64,000 nt of DNA from NCBI GenBank assembly GCA_040768585.1, contig JAXGMQ010000001.1, positions 1,159,299-1,223,298 of the forward strand, written 5' to 3'. Made by a program: the position numbers and the translations under genes. Below, one piece after another: positions 36,073-52,738 of the stretch. Each line of letters begins with the position of its first letter. Position 1 is the stretch's first letter. A model generated the notes under the pieces. It was not told where the DNA came from and did no database searches. It saw only the letters and a list, made by a program, of their open reading frames with translations. The DNA comes from Caldisericia bacterium. Its GTDB lineage: Bacteria; Caldisericota; Caldisericia; JAAYUI01.

Positions 36073-36987
36073 ATGTGAGAATGATTGTTGATTTTTACTA
36101 GATGAGCTTGAAGTGAATCCTTTTTTTACTTTCCAGTGTTGTGAGTTACTCAAGATGAGATATGATCCGTTCCCACAAATAACCACCGGGTCTAGAGAAT
36201 ATCGCTGTGAAGTAAGATATTGAAGTGGGAGGGTTGTAAATTCCTGTGTTTCCTCATCCCAGCAAGGCGGTGGGCACCAAAAGCGTTGTATCCAAGAGGA
36301 CAAAATTTTTGTGTTTGCCTTTGACTGATGTTTATTAAGTGAATAATCTCAAAACATTTTAGTACCGCCAAGCATAACTTCTATTGTTACCAAAGATTTG
36401 ATGATTCCGGTTCTACCAGGATAAGTAACCACAGAAGACACTTGTTGTAAACACAATTGGCTTTGATGGGTCTAGAGGTTTGAATGTTGTGTGAGGGGAT
36501 AGTTCGTGAACCAATGGGAGATTACTCATGATTGGAGTAGAATCTGGTGTGAGGAGTTCCGCAAGTTTTGTGAAAGCAGCATCTCTTCTTAAAATCCCAA
36601 GCAAAGCATGGTAGATACTTTTGCCTCCCACTCTCACATACCTATCTCAACTGGGACTAATTCAAGGTTGCTGGAAATGATGATGAGTTCACGAAGTTTT
36701 TTAAAAACTGCCCACCATGAAATAAACCACAAATTGCTCCAAATCACCTCCATTTTGTAAGCTTTCTCCAGAAAGATTCAATGCCACTCACACATTTTCT
36801 CCTTACGGACTTCCTTCGCCCTGAAGCAATCTTCATCCAATTCTACTTCATCCTTTAGTGGGCGATTTGCCCTCAAGTGGTTACAAAATCCTCTACTTCT
36901 GATTCCCCCTTAGGCATGTGGGGGCGATATACATATTTGTTTCCCTTTCCATTACTGACTATTTCAGATTGAGGAGATTAGGATAAC

Positions 36988-37022
36988 CAAAGCGCTTCAG
37001 TTGGTTACTGAAGTGCTTTGGG
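36988..37022. other. Strong 15-bp inverted repeat/hairpin (one G·U position, 5-nt loop) inside the non-coding stretch.
   Basis: CCAAAGCGCTTCAGT tggtt ACTGAAGTGCTTTGG, read directly from the sequence. No U-tract follows it. Confidence 0.4.
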
Positions 37023-37300
37023 TAGTGGGTATATAGTCTATCGAGAACCCCGCAAATTTATGAAGGGATTAGTCAACCTACAAACGGGAGACCACTCAAA
37101 CGACCAAACAGATGTCTTGCGGTGCTTTGATAATTGAGAACAATATAGAGCGAGGAGGGGGCATAAAAGTACTTTCCCGGATCCCAAAATTTGTAAGGGT
37201 CTAGATAGTTCACATTTTTGTTGAGTCTGAATGACGCTTCTTTAATTAACATTTTGTGCAGAATGAAAACTATAAACCAAAACAGCTTCAGATTGCGCAC

Positions 37301-37370
37301 GACCTCCTCACCCTTTCCCTCCCTCTCCCCCAAAGGGGGAGAGGAATTAGAGGGAGCTTCCTTTTTTCTA
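37301..37370. repeat. Polypyrimidine tract containing a perfect 10-bp hairpin (CCTCTCCCCC aaa GGGGGAGAGG), followed by a T6 run.
   Basis: CCTCCTCACCCTTTCCCTCCCTCTCCCCCAAAGGGGGAGAGGAATTAGAGGGAGCTTCCTTTTTTCT. A second similar tract, CACTCCCCTCTCCC...GGGGCAGGGGCG, lies at about 37455-37500. Confidence 0.4.
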
Positions 37371-37723
37371 AGGAATAGTTAGCAGACAAAAGAGGATTTT
37401 CTTACCTCTGTTAATATTACGCTCCCCTTTCTGAAAGTTGATATTTGGCACACGCACTCCCCTCTCCCTTATAATTGTAAGTGAAAGGGGCAGGGGCGAA
37501 GGTGATTGTTGATAATCATTTCTGAAACAAAAGCCTAAAAATTGGTCAATGAAAAGAAAACAACTCAAACTCAGAAATACACAACAGACTTTAGGTCTAA
37601 TAGTTTACTGTCTCTAACATCGAGCAATCTCTGTTAAAAAAGTTGAACTTGTAGGGAATGGGGACTAGGAAAAGTTATTGATTGGTAAGGTCTGAGTTGG
37701 TAAGAGCCTTCATAAATTGTTTG

Positions 37724-39283
37724 CTATTCTCTTGATTCGCCAAAATTATTACGTACGACAAAAACATCGTTCAGGTCGATGATACCGTTGTTATCGAAGT
37801 CGCACTCAAGTTTGAATCCTGGGTTGAAAGAACGCTTCCCGAGGTGTGTGGCAATAATGATGAGATCTGTCCCATCAACCCTACAGTCGAGGTTGCAGTC
37901 ACCCATAATCTGTTTGATAAAAAAGTTGATCCCAAGTTTGTACCTGTAGTTAGGAGTGTCGACGACTATTTCACCAAAGTCCTGGAGTGACAATACGCCC
38001 TTTGAATTGACACTAACGGCGACCGTCTCGGTGTACCCTGGATAGACGACAATCTCTCTTTTGTCGGTTGAGGTGTTTCTGGCGTAGGTGTGCACTCTGG
38101 CAGATATGGGAGAGCTTCCGAGATTGACTAGTCTAATCTCCCGAGTGTAAATCTTCTCAGGGCAGATGATTCCGAAATTCAAATCGCAGGATATTCCGAG
38201 GTAAAGTCCAAAAGGTGATGTTGAATATCTGATGAGTTTGGGGCCGCATGTCACATAGAAATCTGCTTTGTGAGGAACAGCCTGTGAAGTAATATCGCCT
38301 GGTGTGTTTATGGCGTTGTATGCGGAACCAGTGGATTTCTGGACCGGGATTATCTGGCTATTTCTGGTGCAACAGAGGATGATTCTTCCGCACACAGAAA
38401 TATTTGTTGGAGAGAGAGTTTTATTCATCCACGATGTGTCACCTTCGATGCTTTTGCAGAGAATCCCGCTATCGCTCCCAAAGAGGTAGACCCACTTGCA
38501 GTCAGTCACTGCCCCTTTGTTCTTTCCCGTCGGGGTTTTATCACTCCAGAGTTGTCTACAGTCCTCCACCGCAAGCGCAATGCATCCGCCCCTTTCAAGA
38601 ACAGCCACAAACGAGTTGTCGCTTATGGATGTAACACTCTCCACAAAACCAACCGTGGCGCTAGAGCATACAAGCTCCAGAGATTCTGCATCAAAGACGT
38701 GTACTCGCATGTCTCTGCAAGCGATGACCACCCGATTTCCGACAACCGTTGGGGCAGAAACTGGCTCATCAGGGAGTTCCCCGCTCGATTGTATGATGCC
38801 ATTTGTGTCTGCCCTGTAGATATGTGATTTGCTGTTGATGAATAGAGACCTGTCGGATGCCAAGAGACTCTGTGGGTCATCAACCTCGACATTCCACACG
38901 ACTGAATCGCTCGAGATTCTTCTTGCTGTTATTTCCTTGCCATCGAAGGAGATGAAAAGATCATTGAATATGACAGGCACACATGGGCCAGTTATCTTGA
39001 ATGTTCCCAGCTCCTCTTTGGAGTTGGTATGGAACACAACCGCCTCGTTGGCGCATATCGTAAAAATATAATCATTTGATGTCAGAATGTGGTGCCCCTG
39101 AGAGATAGTAACCTCCCAATTGGACAGATAGGGAGGGTGGACAGTCTGGGCACAATATGCCTGTCTACCACTGTTGCCGCCCACATTTGGCCAGAGGCAT
39201 ACGGCCTCCGAGCCACCTAAAACGGCGACACCGAGTGACACAATCAACAGTGCTAGAAGATAAGCTGTAAGTGCCTTCTTCAT
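37724..39283 (-). CDS. Secreted beta-propeller (PQQ-like repeat) protein with a C-terminal type-I dockerin domain.
   Basis: Signal peptide MKKALTAYLLALLIVSLGVAVLGG. The C-terminus has two EF-hand-like dockerin repeats about 33 aa apart: DCNLDCRVDGTDLIIIATHL and DFDNNGIIDLNDVFVVRNNF. The central region has a repeated beta-strand pattern. It is transcribed divergently from the ECF sigma gene. Confidence 0.7.
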   Translation of the reverse strand: MKKALTAYLLALLIVSLGVAVLGGSEAVCLWPNVGGNSGRQAYCAQTVHPPYLSNWEVTISQGHHILTSNDYIFTICANEAVVFHTNSKEELGTFKITGPCVPVIFNDLFISFDGKEITARRISSDSVVWNVEVDDPQSLLASDRSLFINSKSHIYRADTNGIIQSSGELPDEPVSAPTVVGNRVVIACRDMRVHVFDAESLELVCSSATVGFVESVTSISDNSFVAVLERGGCIALAVEDCRQLWSDKTPTGKNKGAVTDCKWVYLFGSDSGILCKSIEGDTSWMNKTLSPTNISVCGRIILCCTRNSQIIPVQKSTGSAYNAINTPGDITSQAVPHKADFYVTCGPKLIRYSTSPFGLYLGISCDLNFGIICPEKIYTREIRLVNLGSSPISARVHTYARNTSTDKREIVVYPGYTETVAVSVNSKGVLSLQDFGEIVVDTPNYRYKLGINFFIKQIMGDCNLDCRVDGTDLIIIATHLGKRSFNPGFKLECDFDNNGIIDLNDVFVVRNNFGESRE

Positions 39284-39408
39284 TTATCCACATTATTTAT
39301 CCTATTTATTGTATTGTCAATCCTCTATTTCTCAGCCTTTTTTGCAATTCTCTAATAATTTCATTAAAATGGTCTGATACTACTTGGTGAACCAGGGGTG
39401 GTGGTTGG

Positions 39409-40044
39409 GTGTATTTTACCCGAAGTTCGAGCACAAGCCCTTTTGTTTCGCTAACCTTGGGACAGATGGATAGGAAAACAGAAAAGAAAACGATTCTAGC
39501 GGCGCAGAAGGGTGACGCCGAAGCCTTCGAGAAGCTTTACAATGCATTCAAGCTGGAGTTGTACAGATCAGCGCTGCTCATTATGAAACATCCCGCCGAT
39601 GCTGAGGATGCCGTTGCTGAGACCTTCATCAAGACATTCAGGGCGATCGACAGGTTTGACACGAAGTATCCAATGAGACCTTGGTTACATCGGATACTTC
39701 GGAATGAGTGCAACAACATCTTCAAAAAGAAGAGAACAAAGACTGTACTGTACGACGACTTTGGCACAGATTGGAAAGAGTCAGTGGCTGATAGAGACTC
39801 GAAATGCACATCGACGCTCATCATTGAGGACGAGGAGGATTCGAGACTCATGGAACTCATCGATTCGATGAACGATAGCCACAGAGAGGTTCTGATTCTC
39901 CACTACTACGACGGACTCGATCTAATTAAAATCGCTGAAATCATCGGTGTCCCCATCGGTACCGTGAAGTCGCGACTCTTCCACGCCAGAAAACAGCTTT
40001 TGAAGTCTATCGAAGAGAATGAAGTGATATTGGATAGAGATTGA
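39409..40044 (+). CDS. ECF-family RNA polymerase sigma-70 factor.
   Basis: Region 2 (AFEKLYNAFKLELYRSALLIMKHPADAEDAVAETFIKTFRAIDRFD...RPWLHRILRNECNNIFKK) and region 4 (REVLILHYYDGLDLIKIAEIIGVPIGTVKSRLFHARKQL) are both recognisable. The ORF begins at a GTG at 39409. An in-frame ATG at 39466 (MDRKTEKK...) is an alternative start. Confidence 0.85.
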   Translation: MYFTRSSSTSPFVSLTLGQMDRKTEKKTILAAQKGDAEAFEKLYNAFKLELYRSALLIMKHPADAEDAVAETFIKTFRAIDRFDTKYPMRPWLHRILRNECNNIFKKKRTKTVLYDDFGTDWKESVADRDSKCTSTLIIEDEEDSRLMELIDSMNDSHREVLILHYYDGLDLIKIAEIIGVPIGTVKSRLFHARKQLLKSIEENEVILDRD

Positions 40045-40064
40045 TACAGAGAGAGACAGGGAAT

Positions 40065-42326
40065 ATGAGACACCTAACTACAGAACAGATTGCCGCCTAC
40101 CAGGCAGGAGGGATGAGAGCAAGCGAAAAGTTTTTCGCCTTCATCCACCTGCTTGTTTGCGGCGAGTGCAGGGCTGCTCTGAAAAAAGAGAAGAGACTTT
40201 TCAAGAGCACAAACACGAAACTCAAGCGAATTACGAGCCACAGCTTCCCGACAAACCTGATGGATGCGAGAGTGGGAGCAGTCATCTCACAGATAGCTGC
40301 TAACACTGCTCCGCAGGTGAGGTTTTTTGGCAAGTGGGCGACGGTGGCAGCGCTTGTTGTGGTGATGCTTGCGTCATCCTACTCGGTATTCTTCTTTGCC
40401 CCGATCGTGGGAGCAGCGAGAGAGACCCCTGCCCAGGCGTTTGTATCGTCAAAAATAATTCCAATCTACAACGAGATTGGCAACGTGGTTCCTGACATGT
40501 CAGACATCGCGAAGAAAGAGGTGTTCTTCAGGGCGATGTGCGACACACTGATGATTTGCACATCAGAGAGAATAAAGTGGATGTACAGCGAAGGTTACAC
40601 CCTGGAGGAGGTGTATTTCGCAAGTGTGGTGGCAAGGGTTATCGGCGCATCGACAGAATCGGTGCTGCCTCTTCTCAAGCAGGACAAGACGTGGGGGCAG
40701 ATTTTCTCCGAACTCAACATTCCTTTTTCACAGCAACTTGAGATAGAAGAGGGTGTCAAGCAAACAATCAAACAGACTGAGACCGCTATGGACAATCAGA
40801 AAACCTTCTCCGTTCCAGTCCGAAAAAATACCGATGGCTCAATCTCATCGGTTGTTGATATTCCTGAGGATGTCGCCAAAAAAATTCCGGAAGGCAAAGA
40901 GGCGACCGTCGAGATCGATAGAACCGGCAAGCCAACCGGCAACGTTGAGGTGCTTGAGAGACCGACTTACTACACCGGCAACATCGTATCAGTTGAATCA
41001 GGTTATGAGATTTTCACAGTGGATACCGAGAACGGCGATACCGTCACAGTCAGGGTCACACCTGAGACAAACATGAGACGCTATGGAGACTACTTCTTCA
41101 GAACAGAGCTTCGACAGAATCAGCTCTGCGTAGTCAATGGCGTCTGGAGTGAGGGCGTTCTATTCGCTGATTTTGTCGATATCAAAGAGCCTATCAGAAG
41201 CACAAATTTTGAGGGTGTTGTTATTGATATGGACGGTTCGTCAATCACAGTCACAGGATTTGGTGCTCCTCTTAAAAAGAATGAAAACTCAAACATAACA
41301 GGCACGCTTGAGATAGGCTCAAAGGTTGAATTTACGGCCTTTGGCAATGACTATGATGGCTTCCAGATAGAGTGGATGAAGGCTTCACCGAAGATTCAGC
41401 CCACTCCTACTCCCGCTCAACCCAGGGCGACTGTCGAAGGGATTGTTGTGGGCATCGATGAGATCGAGAAGCTTATCCTTCTTGATGACGGCACATCGAT
41501 TTTCTACAACAAGCTGACAGAATTTGCTGGAGGAATGCCCTGGGTTGGCTCTGTTATCGCCAGCGAGGCGTATGAGGTAAACACCAACCTTGATAACAAG
41601 TTCCAAGATCAGGCAATCAAAATCACGATATCAGCACCGAAGACAACGGATACCTTTGAGTATGCAAAGAAGCTTGACTCAATCGTGTGTCTGAGTGGGT
41701 GTAACTGGATACGACCAGAGGGTGTCACGAGAATCACCCTTGAGGGTGTTGATACTTCGTTCCTCATCATCCCGGATACGGTCGGTCATGATCAGGTGAC
41801 TCCAAACCGCAAGGGTTATCTGCTTATCCTTTCAGGCAACACGGTTGATGGCGTAAACATGATAACAAAGGTGAGTGTTGTTGACCCGAAGAGCATAGTC
41901 GTAAAGAGTGGCGTCATCGTCTCACACGAGGGCATGAAGGTGAAACTCGACGACGGTACAGAGATAACACTCAGGTCATTCACCGCAGGCGCAACCGGGG
42001 TTGCAAAGGACGCGAAGGCAGAGTTCAGGTGCTGGCAGACAGAAGGCAAACTCACAGCGCTTGAGGTGACACTGGTCGAGGAGACAAAGAAAACCATCGA
42101 GACTCCCTGGACAAGTGTTGTCTCCTTTGATGGAACAAAGCTTGTTCTTGAGGAAGGTCTGGTTGTTGAATTTGATGAGAACACAGTGGTTGTGACAGCC
42201 GTCCTCAAGGAAGAGATCGACTCATCCCAGATAACGATGGGTTCTAGGGTAATCTGCGTGTACACCGATAATGGTGACGGTAGAAAGATTGCCGTAAAGG
42301 TGATGGTATACATACAGGCTCCATGA
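40065..42326 (+). CDS. Anti-sigma factor. N-terminal ZAS-type zinc-finger motif, one TM helix, and a large (~650 aa) extracytoplasmic beta-rich domain.
   Basis: It immediately follows, and slightly overlaps, the sigma gene. FIHLLVCGECRAAL fits the HxxxCxxC anti-sigma motif. TM segment WATVAALVVVMLASSYSVFFFAPIVGAA. The likely start is the ATG at 40065 (MRHLTTEQ) after GAGAGACAGGGAAT; the ORF track begins at an in-frame TTG at 40041. Confidence 0.7.
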   Translation: MRHLTTEQIAAYQAGGMRASEKFFAFIHLLVCGECRAALKKEKRLFKSTNTKLKRITSHSFPTNLMDARVGAVISQIAANTAPQVRFFGKWATVAALVVVMLASSYSVFFFAPIVGAARETPAQAFVSSKIIPIYNEIGNVVPDMSDIAKKEVFFRAMCDTLMICTSERIKWMYSEGYTLEEVYFASVVARVIGASTESVLPLLKQDKTWGQIFSELNIPFSQQLEIEEGVKQTIKQTETAMDNQKTFSVPVRKNTDGSISSVVDIPEDVAKKIPEGKEATVEIDRTGKPTGNVEVLERPTYYTGNIVSVESGYEIFTVDTENGDTVTVRVTPETNMRRYGDYFFRTELRQNQLCVVNGVWSEGVLFADFVDIKEPIRSTNFEGVVIDMDGSSITVTGFGAPLKKNENSNITGTLEIGSKVEFTAFGNDYDGFQIEWMKASPKIQPTPTPAQPRATVEGIVVGIDEIEKLILLDDGTSIFYNKLTEFAGGMPWVGSVIASEAYEVNTNLDNKFQDQAIKITISAPKTTDTFEYAKKLDSIVCLSGCNWIRPEGVTRITLEGVDTSFLIIPDTVGHDQVTPNRKGYLLILSGNTVDGVNMITKVSVVDPKSIVVKSGVIVSHEGMKVKLDDGTEITLRSFTAGATGVAKDAKAEFRCWQTEGKLTALEVTLVEETKKTIETPWTSVVSFDGTKLVLEEGLVVEFDENTVVVTAVLKEEIDSSQITMGSRVICVYTDNGDGRKIAVKVMVYIQAP

Positions 42327-44290
42327 AAAAAATACTAGCTGCTGCTATTGCTCTCTCACTGGTTGTGCCGACTCTCGCAGTTGGCGCGACCAGTTTGAAT
42401 ATTGAGGTCAACCCCTCGCTAGCCACACTTGGCTGCGAGGTAAAAATCACTGCAACACTTGATGAACCCGCTCCTGAGGCGGCAAAGGTTGAGGTGAGAT
42501 TTCCCGTGGTCATGAAGGTGCCAGGGAAGATTGATGGTGGACTGATAACGGTCAATGAAATGCCTGTTGACACCATCACTGTTGAGAAGAATGTCCTTAC
42601 CTTTGATATCCCAGAACCAATTGAAGACCACGCGAATCTAGAAATTCTCATCCCAACGGCGTGTGGCATTGCAAACCCGTTTGAGGGTGGCAGCTATGTG
42701 ATAGAAATTGACATCGATGGAGTCAGACAAAGAACCAAGTTTGAGGTGGGCAGAATACTTGAAGAATCCCCAATAGTTGTGTTGTCCCCTGACCTTGCCG
42801 GAAAACCCGTCAACCTCATGGTACAGATTCCAGCATCAGAACACCTTCAGCTAGTGCAAGGTGATGCCGTTAAGATAACGCTTCCTGCGGAATTTATTAT
42901 GCCAGAGCTTCCTGACCTTGAGTATGTCACACTCTCTGGCGAGACGCCCCCAGTTGTTGATATGGATGGTAACACCCTCACGGTTGTCGTGGGCTCAGAT
43001 TTACCCATAAATAAGCCTATCACGCTCATTTTTGGAACAGAATTTGGTTTGGTACTTCCCCTCTGGCCGGACACCTACAAGCTAAATTTGGAGATTCCTG
43101 GCAAGCTAGAGGAGACATCGACTGATCTCTTCCAGGTGAGACCACTTAAACCAACTGTTTATGCCTCGGTTGATCCGCCGGAGCCTGAGAACAAGTGGTA
43201 CACGAAACCCCCAACGATCGAACTTCTCAGCGAGGTTGAGAGAGATATCTACTACAATTGGAACTACGAAAGAAAAACCCTTTACGCCGAGAGTTTTACC
43301 GCTCCAGAGGGTGTCAATAACCTCACTTATGTCGGCAGGATAAAAGATGGTGGCTGGGAGGCTGTTTTGACCCGCACCTTCAGGGTTGACTCAAACCCGC
43401 CAATTGTCGGTGATGTGGTGCGTTTCACCAATAAAGCTGAACTAGACTTAATATACAACATCATCGATGTGTCTCCCTGCGAGTCTGGGATTGATGGCTA
43501 TGAAACCGAGTCTCTTGGTGACAACAAATTCAGGACAACCCTTGAGCTTGCGCCTGGCGACAACAGCTTTGTTTTCTGGGCGGTTGACTCGTGCGGCAGA
43601 AAGGTCGAGACCCCCAAAACCATCACACTCGATAACACTCCACCAGCCCTTGATATACTCTCCCCGTCGTCTGGATCGGTCATATGTGGAAGGATAGTTA
43701 GAATTAACGGAGTAACAGAGCCAGGGGCGAAGATTACTGTCGATGGTTCAAACATCCAGGTCGACTCATCGGGCTATTTTATCGCTGTTGTTTCGCCAAC
43801 TGAGGAAGGTCCGGTCAATATAAAGGTTGTATCTCAGGATTTGGCAGGCAACACCCAAGAAGCAGTGCTGCCAATCCTCTATATTTCGGGGACTTCCATC
43901 TCGATGACAATCGGGAAGAAAGACGCTGTTTTTGCCGGAGTTGAAAAGAAGCTTCTAGTTGCTCCATACAAGGACTTTGATGTCACCTACATTCCAGCCC
44001 CAACTCTTCTTAAAGCTCTCAATTACGAGCTTGTCAAAGAGGAGACTGGGGATGGCTGGATGATAAAAGACCTTGTCGGGGATGAGAGGATGTATCTGTC
44101 TCCAGGCGATGTGAACATAGTCAGACAGGGAAGTTCCGGTGCATTCGAGATAAGTTTGTCAAACGCCCCTCAGCTTTCTGAGGATGTTTTGTGCGTACCC
44201 CTGGAATTCACGACGAAAATATTGGATTTGAACCCAAGTGAGTTTGCGGGTGGAGAAATAGTCATAAAATTCTGTCCCAGAGGGGAATAA
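42323..44290 (+). CDS. Secreted protein with Ig-like/beta-sandwich repeats; function unknown.
   Basis: Its ATG overlaps the anti-sigma stop (ATGA), which suggests translational coupling. Signal peptide MKKILAAAIALSLVVPTLAVGAT. Invasin/Ig-like segments are present, for example PPALDILSPSSGSVICGRIVRINGVTEPGAKITVDG. Confidence 0.7.
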   Translation: MKKILAAAIALSLVVPTLAVGATSLNIEVNPSLATLGCEVKITATLDEPAPEAAKVEVRFPVVMKVPGKIDGGLITVNEMPVDTITVEKNVLTFDIPEPIEDHANLEILIPTACGIANPFEGGSYVIEIDIDGVRQRTKFEVGRILEESPIVVLSPDLAGKPVNLMVQIPASEHLQLVQGDAVKITLPAEFIMPELPDLEYVTLSGETPPVVDMDGNTLTVVVGSDLPINKPITLIFGTEFGLVLPLWPDTYKLNLEIPGKLEETSTDLFQVRPLKPTVYASVDPPEPENKWYTKPPTIELLSEVERDIYYNWNYERKTLYAESFTAPEGVNNLTYVGRIKDGGWEAVLTRTFRVDSNPPIVGDVVRFTNKAELDLIYNIIDVSPCESGIDGYETESLGDNKFRTTLELAPGDNSFVFWAVDSCGRKVETPKTITLDNTPPALDILSPSSGSVICGRIVRINGVTEPGAKITVDGSNIQVDSSGYFIAVVSPTEEGPVNIKVVSQDLAGNTQEAVLPILYISGTSISMTIGKKDAVFAGVEKKLLVAPYKDFDVTYIPAPTLLKALNYELVKEETGDGWMIKDLVGDERMYLSPGDVNIVRQGSSGAFEISLSNAPQLSEDVLCVPLEFTTKILDLNPSEFAGGEIVIKFCPRGE

Positions 44291-44294
44291 GATT

Positions 44295-47200
44295 ATGAAA
44301 CGTTTTGTTGCGCCACTGCTTGCCGCTGTTTTTTTCTTCGCTGGTGTGTCGGTGTCAAAGGCTGTATGTAAGGTCGACGTCTACAGTGTTGACGTCAATC
44401 CCGCGGTGTCTCTGGCGAAGGCTTGCTATACGGTCAGTTTTCATATTGAGTGTGCCATGGTGGAGGGCGAGACGTTTGAGGTTCATCTTCCAAGGGACTC
44501 TGAGACGCCGTATGGCTGCCGAACGTGTGACGTTAACATAGACGGCGACTACAAGCACAGGTACGACGTTGAGGGGAATGTGGTAAGGATTCAACTCACG
44601 AGGGGTTTGAGCGCTGGCAGGCATTATTTTCACATCTGCAACGTCACAAATCCCAGCAGCAAAGGGCCACACGTTGTCAGTATCGTGTCCTCCGCCGGGG
44701 TTTTTACCTCAAGACCTTTCAATTTTGCAGACACGGCAATTTCAATCCCAAAGGTCGAAGTGAACCCCGACTATGTCAAGGCGTGTGCTGAATATGAGAT
44801 TACTTTCAAAACATCATCCGATGCCTCAACCGGTTGCGGGTGTTCGAGAAGAACTGTTATATATGTGACATTCCCAAAAAACTTTGTATTCCCCTACGAT
44901 ATTGACCCGCAGTTTGTGCTGGTGAATGGCAGGCCGGCTGATTCGGTCGGTATAATTGACAAGACACTCGTCATCACATCAAGCAGTAAGTTTGTTGCTG
45001 GACAGACCATTAAAATCAAGATTCTAAAAGGTGCTGGTGTCATAAACCCAGAAACCCCTGGGTGGTATTCGCTGAATGTCTACACCTCGGATGACAGAAT
45101 ATCTATCAACAGCGAGAGGTTCTACATCAGACCGTCAACGGTTACAAGAGCCAAGGTGACGCTCGATGACCCTTACACCTGCTCAAAGTCAGGTTTTGTC
45201 GTTGAGTTTATGACGGGCCCCTACGGTCAGATAAAAAAAGGGTCGAAGATTGAACTTATCCTCCCGCCATCATTTGACGTGCCTGATTTTATTCCCGCTG
45301 AGAATCTGTCAGTCAATGACATGCCTGTCATGTCAGAGTCAAGCATCAAATCCAACAATATCGACGGCTGGTCTCAGATTGCGGTGCTCTCGCCTGTTGA
45401 TATTGGGTCTGAGTCAAAGGTTGTGATTATCGTTCTACCAGGCGCTATGATAGCCTTGCCAGACACTCCATCCTATGATTACTCGATCGACGTAAGGACA
45501 GCAACAGAACCAAACAGGGTGCCATCGCTTCCCTTCAGTGTCGACCGTTCGAGGCTTAGAAACGTCAAGCTGACCGCTACTCCCTCCTATGTCTCGCTTC
45601 CTGCGGTTATTCAGGTTGCATTCAGGCTTGGCGGGTGCGGTGATTTGACCTCTGGAATCGACACAATCACTGTGCAGTTTGATGAACTGTTCTGGTTCCC
45701 AGACTCAAAGCTCATGACTGACATAAAGATCAATGGAGTCCCCGTTGACAGACTCGTCATGGTATCCGGCAAACAGATAACAATCTCCCCTCCCAATGAT
45801 ATCCCAGGCGACGAGTGGGTTACAGTTGAGTTTGGAGAAGGTTGTGGTATCAGAAATCCTTCCAAAGCAGGCGAACCTCAGAAGGTGAAGGTGTGGACAA
45901 CAAGAGAGCGAGATGCCTCTGTTTCAAACATCATCCTCTTTGCCACAACTAAAATATCTGGGGTAGCTGTCAGTCTTTCAAAACCCCAAACAGGCAAGTA
46001 TTCGTCCTGCGACATCACCTTTGTCTCAGGTTCAGCTGGAGCGCTGAAGGCAGGCTCACAGCTTCTGCTCAGATTTCCTGAGGGATTTGACTTCAAGGGG
46101 CCGGTCTCGACCCACACCATATTGGTTAACGAAACCAGATGCCGGAGGGTGAGACTCACTGAAAATACGTTGGAACTAACAACCGGCTTGGATATCGAGG
46201 CAGGCACTCAGGTGGGTGTGTCAGTATCGTCAGATGCAAACCTGAGACTGCCAGATGAACCGAGTTACTATCAAATCGAGGTTGCCACCGAGGCTGAACC
46301 AGAGTTTGTGCTGTCGCAGAGGTTCCCAATTGCTGATAAGATTCAATTTGAGTATAAGGTCACACCTGATGAGCCTGATGGGATTGATGAGTGGTATGTC
46401 ACACATCCAACCGTTGAGCTCAGGGCTTTCAACTCGCTCGATGAATTTGCCCAGATTGAGCTTGATATCAACTTTGATGTAAGACCATACAATGGTTCGT
46501 TTGAGATTGATGACGGGTTTACCGTCATAAAGGCTGTCGCAACTGACAAGTTTGGCAACGTGTCAGAACCGCTTGTGCTGAGTTTCGATGTCGACACAAA
46601 CCCGCCAACATTTGAACCTGAATCTGGCACTGTTTACTCAAGAGCCATGTATCACTCAGAGATTGTTGAGATTGATGAACTCAATGACGTTGAGATTGAA
46701 TATGACGAAACTGAGGGTGTGACAGTCGAAAGACAACGGGTAGCCGAACTTGTGAAGGTTTCCTGCAAGGTAGAGACTGAACAAACAAAAACGGTTGAGA
46801 TAACAGCCACCGACGAGGCTGGAAACAGCAACACCTGGGAGCGAATCGTTGTTTTTGATTGGACGGAGCCGATGTTGGAGCTGCCTGATAGGATTACAAC
46901 CGATGAATCGGAGATCACAATCTCTGGAAAAACAGAATCCGGTGCAAGCGTTGTCTGTGATGATGAGATAATAATTTGTGACGATGAGGGCAACTTCACG
47001 CACACCGTCAGTGTCAGTGATGGTTTCTCAAGGTTTTTTTTCACGGCAAAAGATAGGGCTGGAAACTCAAGCACAAAGGTGCTTGCTGTCGAGGCTAATC
47101 TTCAGATTGTGGTGGTTCTGACAATTGGAGAAACCGCGGCAACAATCAATGATGTGCCAACCGAGATTGGTTCAAATCCTGTCTACCTCTCATCCGGCAA

Positions 47201-47477
47201 TGCGATGATACCGCTTCGATTTTTGGCTGAGGCTTTTGACGCGGATGTGGGTTGGGACGAAAAAACTTCGGAAATAACAATCACCGTTGGTGATAAGGTG
47301 ATAGTTGTGAGAGTCGGCAACAGGATAGCAATTGTTGATGGGGAAGTGGTGGAGATGCCAGTTACCCCTGAGATTAAATCGGGCGCGACATTTGTTCCAC
47401 TGCGGTTTATCACCGAATCGTTCGGTTGCCAGCTGGAAGTTGTTGGCAAAAAAATAACAATCACATACAATAAATAG
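44295..47477 (+). CDS. Secreted protein with 5 or more tandem ~125-aa Cys-containing beta-sandwich modules, Ig-like repeats, and two C-terminal CuAO-N1-like modules.
   Basis: RBS AGAGGGGAA. Signal peptide MKRFVAPLLAAVFFFAGVSVSKA. Modules of the form VNG(R/V)P...I..PE.P recur. The C-terminus MIPLRFLAEAFDADVGWDEKTSEITITVGDKVIVVRVGNRIAIVDGEVVEM...ATFVPLRFITESFGCQLEV matches the copper amine oxidase N-terminal-like domain pattern. Confidence 0.75.
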   Translation: MKRFVAPLLAAVFFFAGVSVSKAVCKVDVYSVDVNPAVSLAKACYTVSFHIECAMVEGETFEVHLPRDSETPYGCRTCDVNIDGDYKHRYDVEGNVVRIQLTRGLSAGRHYFHICNVTNPSSKGPHVVSIVSSAGVFTSRPFNFADTAISIPKVEVNPDYVKACAEYEITFKTSSDASTGCGCSRRTVIYVTFPKNFVFPYDIDPQFVLVNGRPADSVGIIDKTLVITSSSKFVAGQTIKIKILKGAGVINPETPGWYSLNVYTSDDRISINSERFYIRPSTVTRAKVTLDDPYTCSKSGFVVEFMTGPYGQIKKGSKIELILPPSFDVPDFIPAENLSVNDMPVMSESSIKSNNIDGWSQIAVLSPVDIGSESKVVIIVLPGAMIALPDTPSYDYSIDVRTATEPNRVPSLPFSVDRSRLRNVKLTATPSYVSLPAVIQVAFRLGGCGDLTSGIDTITVQFDELFWFPDSKLMTDIKINGVPVDRLVMVSGKQITISPPNDIPGDEWVTVEFGEGCGIRNPSKAGEPQKVKVWTTRERDASVSNIILFATTKISGVAVSLSKPQTGKYSSCDITFVSGSAGALKAGSQLLLRFPEGFDFKGPVSTHTILVNETRCRRVRLTENTLELTTGLDIEAGTQVGVSVSSDANLRLPDEPSYYQIEVATEAEPEFVLSQRFPIADKIQFEYKVTPDEPDGIDEWYVTHPTVELRAFNSLDEFAQIELDINFDVRPYNGSFEIDDGFTVIKAVATDKFGNVSEPLVLSFDVDTNPPTFEPESGTVYSRAMYHSEIVEIDELNDVEIEYDETEGVTVERQRVAELVKVSCKVETEQTKTVEITATDEAGNSNTWERIVVFDWTEPMLELPDRITTDESEITISGKTESGASVVCDDEIIICDDEGNFTHTVSVSDGFSRFFFTAKDRAGNSSTKVLAVEANLQIVVVLTIGETAATINDVPTEIGSNPVYLSSGNAMIPLRFLAEAFDADVGWDEKTSEITITVGDKVIVVRVGNRIAIVDGEVVEMPVTPEIKSGATFVPLRFITESFGCQLEVVGKKITITYNK

Positions 47478-47480
47478 CTG

Positions 47481-49439
47481 ATGCTAGGATTCCTATATAC
47501 CCTCGCGCTTCTTGCGTACATTTATTCTTTCGTACTCTTTATCAGATTCTTTGTTTGGCGGCGTCTCGCCTGGTCGAGGTTTTGGAGAACAAAGGTGGAC
47601 ATTACTCTGTCCCAAATAAAGAGCATGGCAAGAAGTTGGGGGGTCAATCTTCCCTTTTTTACAATCATGGTGCCAGCTCGCAATGAGTCCAAGGTTATAA
47701 GGCGAACTGTTGAGAACCTGATGAGACTCGATTACCCAAAGGAATTTCTTCAAATAATCGTTGTCACAGATGAGAAGGAGAGGATCTCCCACGCAGAAAA
47801 GAAGCCTGAGCAGGTCGAGGGACTCTACAAAATTCTCATTGGCGAGACAACCGAGACAAAGTCGGTTGACCTTGAGGAGTTTCTGCTTGCGTGGGTAACC
47901 GAAAGCTTGCCCGTTGGGAGACTTGTCTATCTTGCGCAAAGGCTAGACAGAAGGATTGCAACGGCGAATTTTGCGCAAGACATGAAGGGTCTTGTCTTTA
48001 ATTTCTGCTCATCAATCCTTCGCGACAAACCAACCGACATCTCAAATATCTACTACGGCGTGAGGAAAGCGATCCCTGGCAAGACAGACAGAGAACTAAT
48101 GGAGATTGTGTCAGAGATTCTGCTTCAAGCGAGGGTGTCAATCAGACAGATTGCGGTTCGAATCAAGCTTAAAAGAAACATCACAAAGCGTGTAGCAAGC
48201 ATGGTTCCGAGGGGATATGCATCCACCTCGGCAACGGTTATGGAGAGGATTTCCGAGCTTGATGAAAATATAAAAAACAGGGGTGTTACATCTGTTGAGG
48301 CGTTGGGTGACCTTTATGACAGATTCTTCAAAACCACCCAACAGGTCGTGTGTGAGTGCATCGACTCTTTTAAAACCTCTGGGTTCAAACTCGCACACGT
48401 TGAGGTGCCGTATGATTTCGATGGTGAGTTTGGCGGTGTTTGCACAGGTGTTGAGGTTCGCTCAACAAAGGGCAGAGCCCTCAATTATGCCTTCTCTGAG
48501 GTTGACCCGCAGACTTGCATGATTGCGTTCTATGACGCTGAGTCTCACCCCGACCCAGATGTCTTCCTGCATGCTGCGCGTCACATGCTCTCGGATAATC
48601 CACCTGATATCTTGCAGGGGCCTCTTTTCCAGGTGAGGAACTACTACAGGATGGGAGCGCTCTCAAAGATTGGCGGACTATACAAGGCTATTGCTCATGA
48701 TTGGTATTTGCCCCTTATGTTCAACAGGCTTCCGTTTGTTGGCGGGACAAACCTGCACATCAGTTGGGATTTGATTCAGAGGATGAGAGGGTTTGACGAA
48801 CTCTCGCTCACTGAAGACCTTGAGTTCGGCTGTAGGGCGTACCTCTATTTTGGGACGAAGCTAACATTCCTCACAGTCAAATCAACCGAGCAAACACCCC
48901 CTACCATGCCTCAGTATTTCAGGCAACGTCTTAGGTGGGCATCGGGTCATTTGCAGGTCATCTCGCGTATCAGAAACTACCCCAGACCACGACTGTCTGT
49001 GGGTGATGCGGGTGACTACAAGAGACGGGCAAGGAAACTGTGGTGGTATCTCATTGTGATGGGACCGCTAGAGTGGATGGTGTATCAGCTCTCAACGGGC
49101 ATTGTGCTTCTGATGGATTTAATACTGCTTTCAAACTTCTTTGGTGCAACCATCCCTGGGCCATTCTTTGCTGAGAATGCGATACTATACTGGGCACTGG
49201 TTGGACTCAATGTGCCGTATCTGATTTTCACACTCTACTGTTACCTTAGGTATGATGAGGTGTTTGACAGAACTTTCAGACCTCTTACAGTTGCCGCTGG
49301 CATTTTTGATTTTGTGAAGCTTTTCATTGCCAGTTTTGTGGTTTTTCTCCTTCCTGCCCCCTACACCTGGGCGGTTGTGCTAAAGGCCATTGGACGCGCC
49401 CCAAAGACGTGGGTGAAGACGCCGAGGACGGGCGAGTAA
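47481..49439 (+). CDS. Family 2 glycosyltransferase (processive beta-glycan synthase type), integral membrane.
   Basis: An N-terminal TM helix is followed by IMVPARNESKVIRRTVENLMRLDYP (the GT2 Rossmann start), a DAE motif, and QRLRWASGH (the QxxRW motif of the cellulose/chitin/PNAG-synthase clade). Multiple C-terminal TM helices are present. It begins 4 nt after the upstream stop, so it is probably in the same operon. Confidence 0.75.
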   Translation: MLGFLYTLALLAYIYSFVLFIRFFVWRRLAWSRFWRTKVDITLSQIKSMARSWGVNLPFFTIMVPARNESKVIRRTVENLMRLDYPKEFLQIIVVTDEKERISHAEKKPEQVEGLYKILIGETTETKSVDLEEFLLAWVTESLPVGRLVYLAQRLDRRIATANFAQDMKGLVFNFCSSILRDKPTDISNIYYGVRKAIPGKTDRELMEIVSEILLQARVSIRQIAVRIKLKRNITKRVASMVPRGYASTSATVMERISELDENIKNRGVTSVEALGDLYDRFFKTTQQVVCECIDSFKTSGFKLAHVEVPYDFDGEFGGVCTGVEVRSTKGRALNYAFSEVDPQTCMIAFYDAESHPDPDVFLHAARHMLSDNPPDILQGPLFQVRNYYRMGALSKIGGLYKAIAHDWYLPLMFNRLPFVGGTNLHISWDLIQRMRGFDELSLTEDLEFGCRAYLYFGTKLTFLTVKSTEQTPPTMPQYFRQRLRWASGHLQVISRIRNYPRPRLSVGDAGDYKRRARKLWWYLIVMGPLEWMVYQLSTGIVLLMDLILLSNFFGATIPGPFFAENAILYWALVGLNVPYLIFTLYCYLRYDEVFDRTFRPLTVAAGIFDFVKLFIASFVVFLLPAPYTWAVVLKAIGRAPKTWVKTPRTGE

Positions 49440-49485: not shown

Positions 49486-50406
49486 ATGATGATGAAAAAG
49501 ACGCAATCAATGGTAATTGATGCTTTGATAGATGACATGATTACAAAGTTTTCTCCAAGTGAATTTGAGGAGTTCATAAAATTCCTTCTTAAAGCAATGA
49601 AGTTTGGTTCAAAAAAAACGCCAGATTCAGGGGATAAAGGTGTTGATGTTATTGGCACAATGAGTGCTGGTAGCTTAGCAGATGTTAAAATAAAAATACA
49701 GGTGAAGAAATACGCCAGAGATAGAAAAATTAGTAATGATACTGTGCTACAGCTGAGAGGAACATTGGCACCTGGAGAATATGGTTGTGTAATCACAACA
49801 TCAAGTTTTACAAGTAAAGCTGTAAGTGAAGCAAATGACTGCGCTAAAGGAAAGACTGAAATAACGCTTATAAACGGAATTGATCTTGCTAAACTGGTTT
49901 TGATGAATTTTGATAAAATCTCGAATGAATATCCAGATAGATTTTCAATACGGAGAAGGTTGAATATTCCGCCAGAAGAGAGTTTTGAAGTGGTTGACTC
50001 TAGAGATGATGTAAAAGAAGAACTCAGTGAGGAATCGATGTGTACAACTACCGAAGAAGATGATGACTTTAACACAATTGTTTGTCCGGCTTATGATGGT
50101 GGGGTTGAGAAAACATTTATCCCGAAAAAGGCATGGTGGGCTGTCAAAATTGCAGATAGAAATAAAAGTAAAATTTGCAATATAGCAATATATCAATCAT
50201 CTCCAACTTCTGCAATAACTCATTGGGGTAAGGTTGGAAGAATAGCGGATTACGATGAGACCGGTAAGTGCATTCTTTATTTAGAAGGTGAACCAAAAGA
50301 ATTGACAAACTATGTCAAAAAACCAGGGGGGAAACCTGGAATTCAAGGAACAAAGTATACAACGCTAGATAAACTCCTCAACGCAAAAACACTCGATGAC
50401 CTTTGA
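49486..50406 (+). CDS. Mrr-catalytic-domain (restriction endonuclease-like, PD-(D/E)xK) protein with a C-terminal domain of unknown function.
   Basis: The N-terminal ~150 aa (FEEFIKFLLKAMKF...GDKGVDVIGT...VKIKIQVKKYARDRKISNDTVLQLRGTL...GCVITTSSFTSKAVSEA...ITLINGIDLAKLVL) matches the Mrr_cat pattern. The likely start is the ATG cluster right after a GGAGG at 49486-49494; the ORF track starts at 49444. It sits in an AT-rich segment. Confidence 0.65.
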   Translation: MMMKKTQSMVIDALIDDMITKFSPSEFEEFIKFLLKAMKFGSKKTPDSGDKGVDVIGTMSAGSLADVKIKIQVKKYARDRKISNDTVLQLRGTLAPGEYGCVITTSSFTSKAVSEANDCAKGKTEITLINGIDLAKLVLMNFDKISNEYPDRFSIRRRLNIPPEESFEVVDSRDDVKEELSEESMCTTTEEDDDFNTIVCPAYDGGVEKTFIPKKAWWAVKIADRNKSKICNIAIYQSSPTSAITHWGKVGRIADYDETGKCILYLEGEPKELTNYVKKPGGKPGIQGTKYTTLDKLLNAKTLDDL

Positions 50407-50546: not shown

Positions 50547-52094
50547 CTACTTGGCTAAATCCGGATTTGGAAACAACACCAACACCTCGCCCTGTTTTGT
50601 TTTTGGGTATTCATCGGGGCTTTTCCAGATAACCTTTGCCCCCAATAACTCACAGACAAATCGAAGCGGCAGCATCATTGTGTTGTCGACGATAACAGGT
50701 GTTGTCTCAAACCTTCCATCGATTCTAACCTCAATTCCGTCCACTTTTGCTGTTGGTTTGTTCGCCCAAAGCTCGATTTTCTTTGGCATAATCGGCTCTA
50801 GATTGTTGAAGTTGTATGTGGGGGTCACAAATGTTGCTTTCTTCTCCTTTGAGTTCCAGGTCAGAGTGCAGCCGACTTTTTCTCCTGACACAGTATCAAC
50901 TCTTGTGAAGATGTTGTCCATTAGCCACTTTATCGGAACCATGAGCCTGTCGCCAATAACCTGAGCGTATGGCTTGATTGGGATGGTGTTCTCATCGACA
51001 TAGGCAAAGTATTTCTTGACCGGTATTCTTGTCATGACGGTTTCGATATCAGTCCTCTTTGTGGCATTCTCGATTTTCCAGACGAGTTTCAGGGGTTCTT
51101 TGTCATATACGCTTGTGAATTTGTAGACCGTGTCTGTGCCAATGTCAGACACCCAGACAAACCCCTGGCTGTCAACCTCAACAGAGCTGAGCTTCGCCTC
51201 TGGCGGGAAGACATTCTGTCCTGGGTTTTCACCCGTGTTGCCAATCTCACCGATTTTTGTGAAATTACCGTCAAGTACGGTGACGATGTTGGTGCCTGAG
51301 TCTGCCACGTAGTAATAGCCAAACTCATTGCTTGTTCTGTCTGCCGAGATGTCTGTTGGACTATCAAACACAAGTGAATCGTTGCTCTCTGTCGATATGA
51401 CAAATTCCCCATCACGCCTGTATTTTAAGATTCTCTTGTTACCAGTGTCGGCAACAAGCACATATCCTCGTACATCAACTACGACCCCCTCTGGACTGTT
51501 GAAATGCTCATTATCATTACCCGCTGGCGCGCTGGAGTGTTCGTATCCTTCTGGTGTGGTGAATCTTGGAATAGCATAATCGTTACAGTCTTCGACACTT
51601 TTATCAAAATCAATTGCATACGGATCATATCTGACGAGTTTGTTCCCTGCTCTGTCTATGACATATGCCCCAATATCGTCTGCTATTCCGATTTTTGCCA
51701 TGGCATATGGTTCAAGAAGTTCGTGCCTTTCCGGGTCACCTGTGAAGGTGTGGTGCGTCCTGTTTGGGTTCATGTTGACGATTGTGCCAAGGGTTGCATC
51801 AACAATACCTATTGTGTTTCCAACTCTGCAGGTGCTTATGTCCACCGGAGATACCAGTTTCAAATCTTTACAGTAGATAATCTCCTTTATGAAATCCCCC
51901 AAGTAGTGCCCATACATATCAAACTTATGAACCTTTGAGTTAATCGGGTCTGCAACAAAGATGTAGTACCCAAAGTCACAGGCAATCCCCATCTTCTTGT
52001 GCTGTGGCGCGCTCCTTGAAACAGACACGGAAAAACCAAACACCAAGATGGCAGCTAAAAACACCGACACATAAAATCTAATATTCCTCTTCAT
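50547..52094 (-). CDS. Secreted NHL-repeat/beta-propeller protein with a C-terminal CuAO-N1-like module.
   Basis: The likely start is at MKRNIRFYVSVFLAAILVFGFSVSVSRSA, after a GAGGGGGTG RBS; the longer ORF start at 52220 lacks one. NHL-like repeats are recognisable (YVADSGTNIVTVLDG, VWVSDIGTDTVYKF, YVLVADTGNKRILKY). The C-terminus MMLPLRFVCELLGAKVIWK carries the CuAO-N1-like motif. Confidence 0.7.
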   Translation of the reverse strand: MKRNIRFYVSVFLAAILVFGFSVSVSRSAPQHKKMGIACDFGYYIFVADPINSKVHKFDMYGHYLGDFIKEIIYCKDLKLVSPVDISTCRVGNTIGIVDATLGTIVNMNPNRTHHTFTGDPERHELLEPYAMAKIGIADDIGAYVIDRAGNKLVRYDPYAIDFDKSVEDCNDYAIPRFTTPEGYEHSSAPAGNDNEHFNSPEGVVVDVRGYVLVADTGNKRILKYRRDGEFVISTESNDSLVFDSPTDISADRTSNEFGYYYVADSGTNIVTVLDGNFTKIGEIGNTGENPGQNVFPPEAKLSSVEVDSQGFVWVSDIGTDTVYKFTSVYDKEPLKLVWKIENATKRTDIETVMTRIPVKKYFAYVDENTIPIKPYAQVIGDRLMVPIKWLMDNIFTRVDTVSGEKVGCTLTWNSKEKKATFVTPTYNFNNLEPIMPKKIELWANKPTAKVDGIEVRIDGRFETTPVIVDNTMMLPLRFVCELLGAKVIWKSPDEYPKTKQGEVLVLFPNPDLAK

Positions 52095-52237
52095 ACCTAG
52101 CACCCCCTCTCTTGAAGATATTCTAAGACAGCAGGGCAACAGTAGACAAACAAGATTGGCGTCAGATTCCGTTAAATATGAATCAATCTGTGACATGAAA
52201 ACTGGAAAACTTTCCAACAATGACTAAAATCATCCTC

Positions 52238-52738
52238 ATGTGGATATTCGAAGAAAAAACTCAAATGACTGGTTTTTGGTGGATTATCCTGCTTGTTTTC
52301 CTTGCAACTATTGCTCCCCTTGTGCTTGCCTATGTCTTTGGTGACCTAAGCTCCTTCGCTGAAATCAAGCCTCTTCTGAGCATTGTACTAATTCTCGATG
52401 TTGCGCTTTTTGGCTTCCTGCTTGGTATTATGAGATACCTAGTTGTCAGGTTCGACGAGAAGACGCTGGAGTTTGGTTTTCACCCCTTTGTTGTCAAAGT
52501 CCCTTTTGACAAAATTCAGAGCATCAGAATCAAGAAGTACTCCTTCTGGCAAACGGGTGGGTTTGGCATACGACTTGGCGCAAATCGTAGGTGGAACTAT
52601 GTTGCAAGGACGGGGTGGTTTGTCGAGGTCGACTGGGCAGAGAACAAGCGTCATGGATTTTCGATCACGGACTGTGAGGCGTTTTATGGGGGGATAAAGG
52701 ATTTTCTTGGAGATAGGGCGAGTTTGGAAGAAGGGTAG
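52238..52738 (+). CDS. Small membrane protein with two TM helices and a bacterial PH-like C-terminal domain (tandem paralog 1 of 4).
   Basis: (M)WIFEEKTQMTGFWW parallels the MVYFEEK N-termini of the three downstream paralogs. Two hydrophobic helices are present. The C-terminal FYGGIKDFLGDRA parallels FFKVMKELIGDD in the others. The ORF track begins at an upstream ATG at 52220. Confidence 0.55.
   Translation: MWIFEEKTQMTGFWWIILLVFLATIAPLVLAYVFGDLSSFAEIKPLLSIVLILDVALFGFLLGIMRYLVVRFDEKTLEFGFHPFVVKVPFDKIQSIRIKKYSFWQTGGFGIRLGANRRWNYVARTGWFVEVDWAENKRHGFSITDCEAFYGGIKDFLGDRASLEEG

Follow-up and report, generated by a model that had tools for sequence, protein, structure and literature searches.

A putatively autoregulated ECF sigma/anti-sigma operon with secreted envelope proteins in Caldisericia

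RESULTS

Five tightly packed genes and their conservation

We analyzed a 64-kb stretch of a Caldisericia genome (contig JAXGMQ010000001.1 of assembly GCA_040768585.1, positions 1,159,299 to 1,223,298; this whole stretch is called the window, and coordinates are counted from its first letter). Five co-oriented genes occupy its plus strand from 39466 to 49439 and encode, in order, an extracytoplasmic function (ECF) sigma factor, a membrane anti-sigma factor, two secreted proteins that we call p3 and p4, and a family 2 glycosyltransferase (GT2) (Table 1). An original prediction from the sequence alone had described these genes as co-oriented and tightly packed. This description holds, with gaps of 20, -4, 4, and 3 nucleotides (nt) along the array and with packing that is conserved across species, but some of the boundaries had to be redrawn. 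The sigma gene begins at ATG 39466 (MDRK...) according to its orthologues and independent gene calls, and its stop codon ends at 40044; GTG 39409 is ruled out as a start by the orthologues, and that codon sits within the promoter -10 element. The anti-sigma gene begins at ATG 40065, 20 nt past the sigma stop, since all six orthologues begin with MRHL. TTG 40041, the start of the longest open reading frame (ORF), is thereby excluded, and the supposed GTGA-type overlap of the two genes turns out to be an ORF artifact (the letters at the longest ORF are TTGA). The predicted ATGA overlap is real and joins the anti-sigma gene to p3 (42323-42326). Of the gaps described as 4 nt, the one between p3 and p4 has that length, and the one between p4 and the GT2 gene is 3 nt. 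Terminators between the genes, which the original prediction had listed as evidence against an operon, were not found in a terminator scan, and the gaps leave no room for them. The only strong terminator nearby, at 36035-36067, follows the last of several giant genes upstream, and a divergent gene lies between that giant gene and the array. The layout supports the five genes forming one predicted transcription unit.

Table 1. Features of the five-gene locus, in window coordinates
Feature	Position	Strand	Basis
Sigma-70-like promoter P1, TTGCAA-17-TAAAAT	39342..39370	+	Consensus scan; putative function
ECF-type promoter P2, TGAACC-N16-TGTAT, likely autoregulatory	39388..39414	+	Motif match, conservation
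ECF sigma factor, 192 amino acids (aa)	39466..40044	+	Pfam/NCBIfam, orthologues, gene calls
Single-pass anti-sigma factor of the zinc-associated anti-sigma (ZAS) type, 753 aa	40065..42326	+	Orthologue alignment, adjacency to sigma gene
HxxxCxxC zinc-finger codons (HLLVCGEC, aa 28-35)	40146..40169	+	Direct reading; invariant in alignment
Transmembrane (TM) helix, ~aa 90-114	40332..40406	+	Hydrophobic stretch WATVAALVVVMLASSYSVFFFAPIV; helix at 91-110 in AlphaFold 2 (AF2) model
Juxtamembrane extracytoplasmic helical domain, aa 122-244	40428..40796	+	AF2 secondary structure; invariant columns
~7 small beta-barrels (DUF5666-like oligonucleotide/oligosaccharide-binding [OB] folds), aa 247-749	40803..42311	+	AF2 model, Foldseek, profile search
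p3, secreted 655-aa envelope protein, paralogue of p4	42323..44290	+	Signal peptide MKKILAAAIALSLVVPTLAVGA, Pfam
p4, secreted 1060-aa envelope protein	44295..47477	+	Pfam/NCBIfam, repeat alignment
Cu_amine_oxidN1 domain of p4, aa 951-1056, putative envelope anchor	47145..47462	+	Pfam, 125.6 bits
Candidate internal sigma-70-like GT2 promoter, TTGGCA-17-TACAAT	47443..47471	+	Consensus scan
Membrane-embedded synthase-type GT2, 652 aa	47481..49439	+	Pfam Glyco_trans_2_3, 72.7 bits; AF2; Foldseek
~200-aa all-helical insertion in GT-A domain, aa 98-296	47772..48368	+	Split Pfam matches; ten helices in AF2 model
QRLRW motif codons, aa 482-486	48924..48938	+	Invariant in 34 sequences

The same gene order recurs in at least nine Caldisericales genomes at 30 to 60% protein identity and is thus not a chance arrangement. 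Using tblastn with the window proteins, we found the full order from sigma to GT2 in loci L008, L009, L010, L013, L014, and L015 and a truncated form in L012 and L018. Identity to the orthologues is ~60% for the sigma factor and the GT2, ~38% for p3, ~39% for p4, and 31% for the anti-sigma factor, and the faster evolution of the last is what would be expected of an exposed sensor. The first three junctions stay short in the orthologues (-4 to 20 nt between sigma and anti-sigma genes, -4 to 1 nt between anti-sigma gene and p3, and 1 to 4 nt between p3 and p4). A far more divergent Caldisericia lineage (L094), whose GT2 is 37% identical to that of the window, keeps the order p3-like, p4-like, GT2, with a 744-aa ORF before these genes.

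The sigma factor and its likely promoter

The sigma factor scores well above the family cut-offs in Pfam (Sigma70_r2, 50.2 bits against 24; r4_2, 47.9 bits against 25.7) and NCBIfam (TIGR02937, 92.4 bits against 42.9), and these profiles identify it as a bona fide ECF (group IV) member. Its best named model is that of SigW, known from Bacillus subtilis (PRK09641/TIGR02948), for which it remains below the cut-offs (107 against 209 bits and 88.5 against 243 bits); the 107 bits are far under the SigW equivalog cut-off.

Two promoter-like elements precede the sigma gene. The TAAAAT box of P1 is kept at the same relative position in seven orthologous loci. P2 belongs to the pattern TGAACC-N16-nGTAT, which has one match in the window against 0.24 expected. 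In each of the seven loci that cover this region, the pattern precedes the sigma start by ~50 nt and follows the TAAAAT box by 15 to 20 nt, and in the other loci it is found only at the equivalent position. ECF promoters have a consensus of AAC in the -35 region and CGT in the -10 region, as in TGAAAC-N16-CGTA of SigW, which the operon promoter resembles; an autoregulated arrangement, predicted for the operon, is common to both systems. Because P2 is unique, is conserved in place, and fits the AAC/CGT type of ECF promoter, we read it as an autoregulatory promoter that likely makes the unit self-regulated. When the pattern was relaxed, it matched only inside coding sequence in the window, and no further members of a regulon emerged.

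A zinc-finger-type anti-sigma factor with a large, predicted OB-barrel ectodomain

The HxxxCxxC motif named in the original prediction is present in the anti-sigma factor, where H28, C32, and C35, together with the upstream H3, are invariant in six orthologues and give an HHCC pattern (H-x24-HxxxCxxC). The AF2 model places helices at residues 6-14, 19-31, and 33-60. The motif, the upstream fourth ligand, and the N-terminal helical domain point to a ZAS-type protein, which would bind zinc and the sigma factor; the anti-sigma gene adjoins the sigma gene in every locus. In Pfam and NCBIfam, the N-terminus has a weak RseA match and otherwise no family match. Pfam zf-HC2 (PF13490) does not match the window protein; the orthologue P0122 reaches 19.6 bits against a cut-off of 22.2, and distant relatives found with a profile of the anti-sigma factor exceed that cut-off at 23.5 to 39.1 bits. 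The FecR domain appears only below threshold in the orthologues (14 to 16 bits against a cut-off of 24), and no TonB-dependent receptor was found among the genes scanned. The cell-surface signaling of the original proposal is thus not of the strict FecI/FecR/TonB kind.

The ectodomain is as large as had been proposed, with ~640 aa beyond the TM helix, and its full length is kept in all orthologues. Its best-conserved part is the juxtamembrane helical domain with invariant C159 and C165, for which we obtained only scattered, sub-threshold helix-turn-helix-like matches. Six ectodomain cysteines are invariant (C159, C165, C542, C546, C656, and C731), and two pairs are spaced Cx5C and CxxxC. It is possible that they form disulfides or a metal site; a thioredoxin pair is encoded 12 kb downstream. 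The barrel region is modeled with a predicted local distance difference test (pLDDT) score of mostly 70 to 90, and its top Foldseek matches are ribosomal protein S1 (E=1.4e-11), the cold-shock domains of Unr, the OB domain of Mpa, and CusF. No carbohydrate-binding module was found in family scans of the window protein and its orthologues.

A search of 1.84 billion representative sequences with the anti-sigma profile returned six full-length relatives and one fragment. All further matches were DUF5666/CusF-like repeat proteins or zinc-finger anti-sigma N-termini, and the strong DUF5666 proteins retrieved reached E values down to 2.6e-19. Pfam DUF5666 itself (PF18914, cut-off 27 bits) does not match the window protein and gives 22.7 bits for the orthologue P0126. 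Nothing functional was found in titles and abstracts of the literature on DUF5666 or on DUF2808, the family that p3 and p4 resemble. Three proteins (P0170, P0184, and P0189), found by the anti-sigma profile at E values of 1e-8 to 1e-7, belong to the same length class (761 to 804 aa), have an N-terminal zf-HC2 domain that exceeds the Pfam cut-off, and resemble the anti-sigma factor in the TM helix, the helical region, and the DUF5666 barrels. The P0170 gene, too, follows an ECF sigma gene, which it overlaps by 4 nt. They differ in that only their N-terminal third aligns and in that p3, p4, and a GT2 gene are missing downstream in the locus L091. The large ectodomain is thus real and seems to be a divergent case of an existing zf-HC2 plus DUF5666 architecture; the combination of parts and the OB-barrel sensor are specific to this lineage.

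The secreted proteins p3 and p4

The original prediction of two secreted multi-Ig proteins, one of them with CuAO-N1 (Cu_amine_oxidN1), was right about secretion and the Ig-like domains and has to be extended in that both proteins carry CuAO-N1. Their signal peptides were read directly from the N-termini. In p3, Pfam recognizes Glucodextran_B (42.7 bits) and a CuAO-N1 match that is partial but above the cut-off, and p4 consists of ~5 DUF2808-like repeats, an OmpL47-like domain, Big_6/Glucodextran_B, and a C-terminal CuAO-N1 pair. The two align with each other at E=4e-20, p4 having extra copies of a ~130-aa N-terminal repeat. DUF2808 (PF10989, cut-off 25.3 bits) matches neither protein; it gives 26.9 bits in the homologue P0137, which is 25% identical across the repeats, and 19 bits in P0128.

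CuAO-N1 (PF07833, cut-off 24.2 bits) was found at 125.6 bits in p4, 30 bits in p3, 52.2 bits in an NHL protein encoded on the minus strand at 50547-52220, and 31.8 to 70.8 bits in the giants. Its presence at the C-terminus of all giants and of the NHL protein had been predicted and is confirmed by Pfam. With the giants, p3 and p4 share only the C-terminal Glucodextran_B/CuAO-N1 cassette. The domain is a putative envelope-anchoring module. The sole precedent that we found for its role is Swol_0133 of Syntrophomonas wolfei, an abundant S-layer-like protein with a C-terminal CuAO-N1 (PMC3582634). Likened by its description, that protein is secreted, occurs in the membrane fraction, and has CuAO-N1 at its C-terminus as its only recognized domain, as in p3, p4, and the giants; it is not known from an ECF operon.

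The synthase-type GT2

The original prediction of a QxxRW-type GT2 is well supported, with QRLRW at aa 482-486 and a predicted fold that resembles those of synthases. D97, D352-A-E-S, T444-E-D, and Q482-R-L-R-W are invariant across 34 homologues, in which PARNES, TEDLE, and the C-terminal WVKTPRTxE are invariant or nearly so. Pfam matches fall at aa 61-99 and 329-575, and the helical insertion between them is present across the family and poorly conserved. The AF2 model (pLDDT 87.7) has one N-terminal and ~3-4 C-terminal TM helices. Its top Foldseek matches are all synthases (probability 1.0, E 2e-7 to 1e-4), led by BcsA, hyaluronan synthase, Chs1, and CesA at E 1e-7 to 1e-6, with TM-scores of only 0.25 to 0.40 and sequence identities of 10 to 14%. 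A profile search of the PDB gave only weak BcsA and PcManGT matches, and single-sequence PDB searches gave nothing useful for the GT2, the anti-sigma factor, p3, or p4. With BcsA, hyaluronan synthase (HAS), chitin synthase (CHS), and NodC, the protein shares the GT-A fold, the first Asp, the DxD-like DAES, TED, QxxRW, an interface helix, and the C-terminal TM helices; it differs from them in the ~200-aa helical insertion between the first Asp and DAES, in the invariant WVKTPRTxE C-terminus, and in having no PilZ domain by Pfam. TIGR03030 (CelA) scores 21.7 bits against a cut-off of 699, and no NCBIfam equivalog threshold is reached. We propose that this enzyme makes and exports an envelope polysaccharide.

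In a scan with one genome per species, relatives at 55 to 62% identity came only from metagenome-assembled genomes of Caldisericales/Caldisericia and relatives at 33 to 38% from Bacillota (Symbiobacterium, Fermentithermobacillaceae, and others). A protein identical to the window GT2 occurs on many metagenome contigs. In two of the Bacillota loci (L092, 2951-4291; L093, 8053-9423), the solitary GT2 gene lies near a gene for a ~450-aa protein without a family and near the same ornithine carbamoyltransferase (OTCase), radical-SAM, and AMMECR1 genes. This ~450-aa protein is a possible conserved partner of the family.

The giants and other neighboring genes

All of the giants are paralogous (31 to 37% identity over ~1900 aa). 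A 947-aa ORF (16223-19066) matches the N-termini of giants 2 and 5, and an overlapping 2661-aa ORF (18990-26975) matches giants from residue ~640 on; together they probably represent a single giant gene that a frameshift or an assembly error has broken in two. The spacers between giants (5444-5652, 16051-16222, and 26976-27148) have a common layout of a GC-rich hairpin, followed ~20 nt on by GATTGATT (at 5553, 16129, and 27048), from which it is ~95 nt to the ribosome-binding site AAGGAGAG and the ATG. The original prediction had named GATTGATT as an element with which to search for the sigma regulon. We rejected it as this sigma factor's motif, since it is not enriched in the window (5 copies against 4.5 expected) and is absent from the operon promoter; three of the five copies lie in these ~550 nt of spacers, to which the element belongs.

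The divergent gene upstream of the sigma gene (37724-39283, minus strand) encodes a secreted beta-propeller protein (PQQ_2/BamB-like) with a C-terminal dockerin type I domain; a counterpart holds the same position in L008, L014, and L015 (26 to 29% identity) and is absent in L009 and L010. Beyond it, 1.75 kb (35972-37723) that includes the terminator at its start has no ORF above 108 aa, a lower GC content (~41%), no Rfam or tRNA match, and no similarity in the orthologous loci, where the corresponding gap is ~0.3 kb. Over the window as a whole, neither Rfam (at gathering thresholds) nor tRNA scans gave a match.

Directly after the GT2 gene lies a sixth co-oriented gene (49492-50406), for an Mrr-like nuclease. 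We rejected it as an operon member, as other genes take this place in the orthologous loci (Fic in L008, others in L009 and L010). Its product, an Mrr_cat nuclease, resembles type IV methyl-directed restriction enzymes and gives a match to the PADLOC candidate system PDC-S02 (E=7e-32); the C-terminal half has no assigned family. The gene appears as a variable insertion. Downstream of ~52 kb, GC content falls to 37 to 39% (52220-62351) in a segment that holds four small ORFs without a family (155 to 172 aa), the thioredoxin pair (54472-55427), and three ORFs of similar size (~710 aa), each with only a weak PQQ-like beta-propeller match. This segment may be an acquired island.

DISCUSSION

On balance, we think it probable that the locus is an autoregulated ECF sigma/membrane anti-sigma operon specific to Caldisericia, whose own downstream genes are its main, and perhaps its only local, targets. 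The cargo encoded in cis would then be the two envelope proteins, with the GT2 joined to them in this genome by read-through and probably also expressed independently. All of the parts are of known kinds, and the locus does not look like a new kind of system.

A working model can be assembled from these parts. At rest, the sigma factor would be held at the membrane by the N-terminal HHCC zinc-finger domain of the single-pass anti-sigma factor, whose ectodomain, made of the conserved helical domain and a stalk of ~7 DUF5666-like OB barrels, would reach into the envelope. A signal from the envelope, most likely that the surface layer or glycan in contact with the ectodomain is damaged or missing, would lead to removal of the anti-sigma factor, presumably by regulated proteolysis as for RsiW. 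The freed sigma factor would fire the TGAACC-N16-nGTAT promoter before its own gene, resulting in more transcription of the sigma, anti-sigma, p3, and p4 genes and, via read-through over the 3-nt gap, of the GT2 gene. p3 and p4, with their DUF2808-like repeats and Ig-like/CuAO-N1 C-terminal cassette, would be supplied to the envelope, and the GT2, which probably has a constitutive promoter of its own as well, would make and export an envelope polysaccharide. The binding of sigma to anti-sigma, the proteolytic activation, and the nature of the signal are our inferences. We also considered a closed feedback loop in which the OB-barrel stalk acts as a dipstick that binds the GT2 glycan or the p3/p4/CuAO-N1 layer; a thin layer would leave the stalk unoccupied, the anti-sigma factor would be cleaved, and the sigma factor would boost synthesis of layer protein and glycan. 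This is a speculative extension that we regard as improbable. If it held, it would represent a novel mode of sensing how complete the envelope is.

Several observations weigh against the operon as we propose it. Cotranscription and autoregulation are deduced from the sequence; the anti-sigma factor of the window reaches no Pfam or NCBIfam threshold; its AF2 model was built from six sequences only (pLDDT 72.8, predicted template modeling score 0.38); and the window contains no gene for a site-1 or site-2 protease. Other objections concern the GT2, which could be a housekeeping synthase of envelope polysaccharide that stands beside a four-gene ECF operon, is transcribed mainly from its own promoter, and lies outside the regulated program. 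In Bacillota, the family stands alone among housekeeping genes. Within Caldisericia, the GT2 gene is detachable: the distance from p4 ranges between -119 and 77 nt, L011 and L016 have other genes (4.3 kb and 9 kb, respectively) inserted between the two, and kilobase-scale separation or inversion affects L011, L016, and L017. In L016 and L017, where it stands alone, the GT2 gene has a sigma-70-like promoter of its own in front of it, accompanied in L016 by an upstream intrinsic terminator, and the detached GT2 genes have no ECF motif before them. A -10-like TAnnnT box lies 8 to 10 nt upstream of the GT2 ATG in nine of nine loci; in the window, 9 nt separate this box (TACAAT) from the ATG, and a Shine-Dalgarno sequence is missing. 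The GT2 gene therefore probably has its own promoter here too, and from the position of the box and the missing Shine-Dalgarno sequence, its transcript is possibly leaderless. Given this box and the solitary occurrence of the family in Bacillota, coupling of the GT2 to the ECF switch may be incidental. Nevertheless, with only 3 nt and no terminator between p4 and the GT2 gene, read-through is hard to avoid, and most Caldisericales as well as the lineage with a 37% identical GT2 have retained the GT2 gene next to p4, which argues for a functional link to p3 and p4. A housekeeping GT2 outside the program is thus a possibility that we take seriously while considering it the less likely one; the original view of the GT2 as a fixed member of the regulated unit is weakened.

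The remaining alternatives concern what the switch senses and what it controls. ECF/anti-sigma pairs are ubiquitous, and a distant sigma/anti-sigma pair of the same architecture (L091) lacks p3, p4, and the GT2 downstream, as would be expected if this were a generic envelope-stress pair and p3 and p4 were ordinary adhesin- or S-layer-like passengers that share its transcript by an accident of packing in a small genome. We consider such an accident unlikely, in that the ATGA and 1- to 4-nt coupling-type junctions between the anti-sigma gene, p3, and p4 persist despite divergence to 31 to 39% identity. The switch could instead be cytoplasmic: the HHCC site would respond, as RsrA and ChrR do, to oxidants or singlet-oxygen-type stress, and the ectodomain would be a mere tether. 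The zinc ligands are indeed invariant, and ZAS proteins of the CHCC and HHCC types include redox-responsive members, but oxidation does not affect the membrane-anchored ZAS protein RsiW, whose regulation is proteolytic (PMC5358783). Moreover, an ectodomain of this size that is full length in all orthologues and has an invariant juxtamembrane domain argues for a function outside the cell, and the cargo consists of secreted envelope proteins and not of thiol-repair enzymes. A purely cytoplasmic sensor therefore seems to us a poor fit. The original prediction also held that the operon may control display of the giants, with the GT2 building an anchoring polymer and the sigma factor coregulating the giant genes. 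The giants, p3, p4, and the NHL protein all end in the Glucodextran_B plus CuAO-N1 cassette, and in L008, L009, L010, and L013 the gene immediately before the operon is a giant orthologue (55% identity). However, no ECF motif was found upstream of any giant gene in the window, even with relaxed patterns; the giants have their own hairpin and GATTGATT spacers, the strong terminator and the divergent gene separate them from the operon, and the link between CuAO-N1 and a glycan is conjecture. Control of the giants by this operon was not borne out, and we give the idea little credence.

The operon that we favor can be compared with characterized systems. The anti-sigma factors of the SigI-RsgI systems of Clostridium thermocellum have ectodomains with carbohydrate-binding modules. 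Common to them and to the locus described here is the concept of a single-pass anti-sigma factor whose large, modular ectodomain contacts a polysaccharide and which governs genes for surface or extracellular proteins; SigI, in contrast, is not an ECF sigma factor, and RsgI has an N-terminal domain of its own and no zinc finger. ChrR, which pairs with RpoE in Rhodobacter sphaeroides, has the same H...HxxxCxxC pattern, with a 25-residue spacing from the first His, but is soluble and has a cupin C-terminal domain, whereas the anti-sigma factor here spans the membrane and carries an extracytoplasmic array. RsiW likewise has one TM helix, and the ligands of its N-terminal zinc site sit almost where H3, H28, C32, and C35 do. 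The ligands of RsiW are C3, H30, C34, and C37, and those of ChrR are of the HHCC type (PMC5358783). RsiW is thus a CHCC protein and has a short extracellular domain, unlike the HHCC protein here with its ~640-aa helical and OB-barrel ectodomain. Activation of SigW depends on proteolysis by PrsW and RasP; in our window, the cargo genes lie in cis to the sigma gene, and no PrsW or RasP gene is found.

Only one species of Caldisericota is in culture, and little work has been done on the envelope of this phylum. The locus offers a concrete, conserved, and testable handle on that envelope through its sigma factor, for which a promoter motif is defined, its sensor with the unusual OB-barrel stalk, and its two surface proteins. 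The GT2 adds a widespread family whose catalytic domain carries a helical insertion and which also occurs in Symbiobacterium, Fermentithermobacillaceae, and other Bacillota. If CuAO-N1 is a glycan-binding anchor and the GT2 makes its ligand, this would explain how hundreds of CuAO-N1 surface proteins are displayed in anaerobic Bacillota and Caldisericia.

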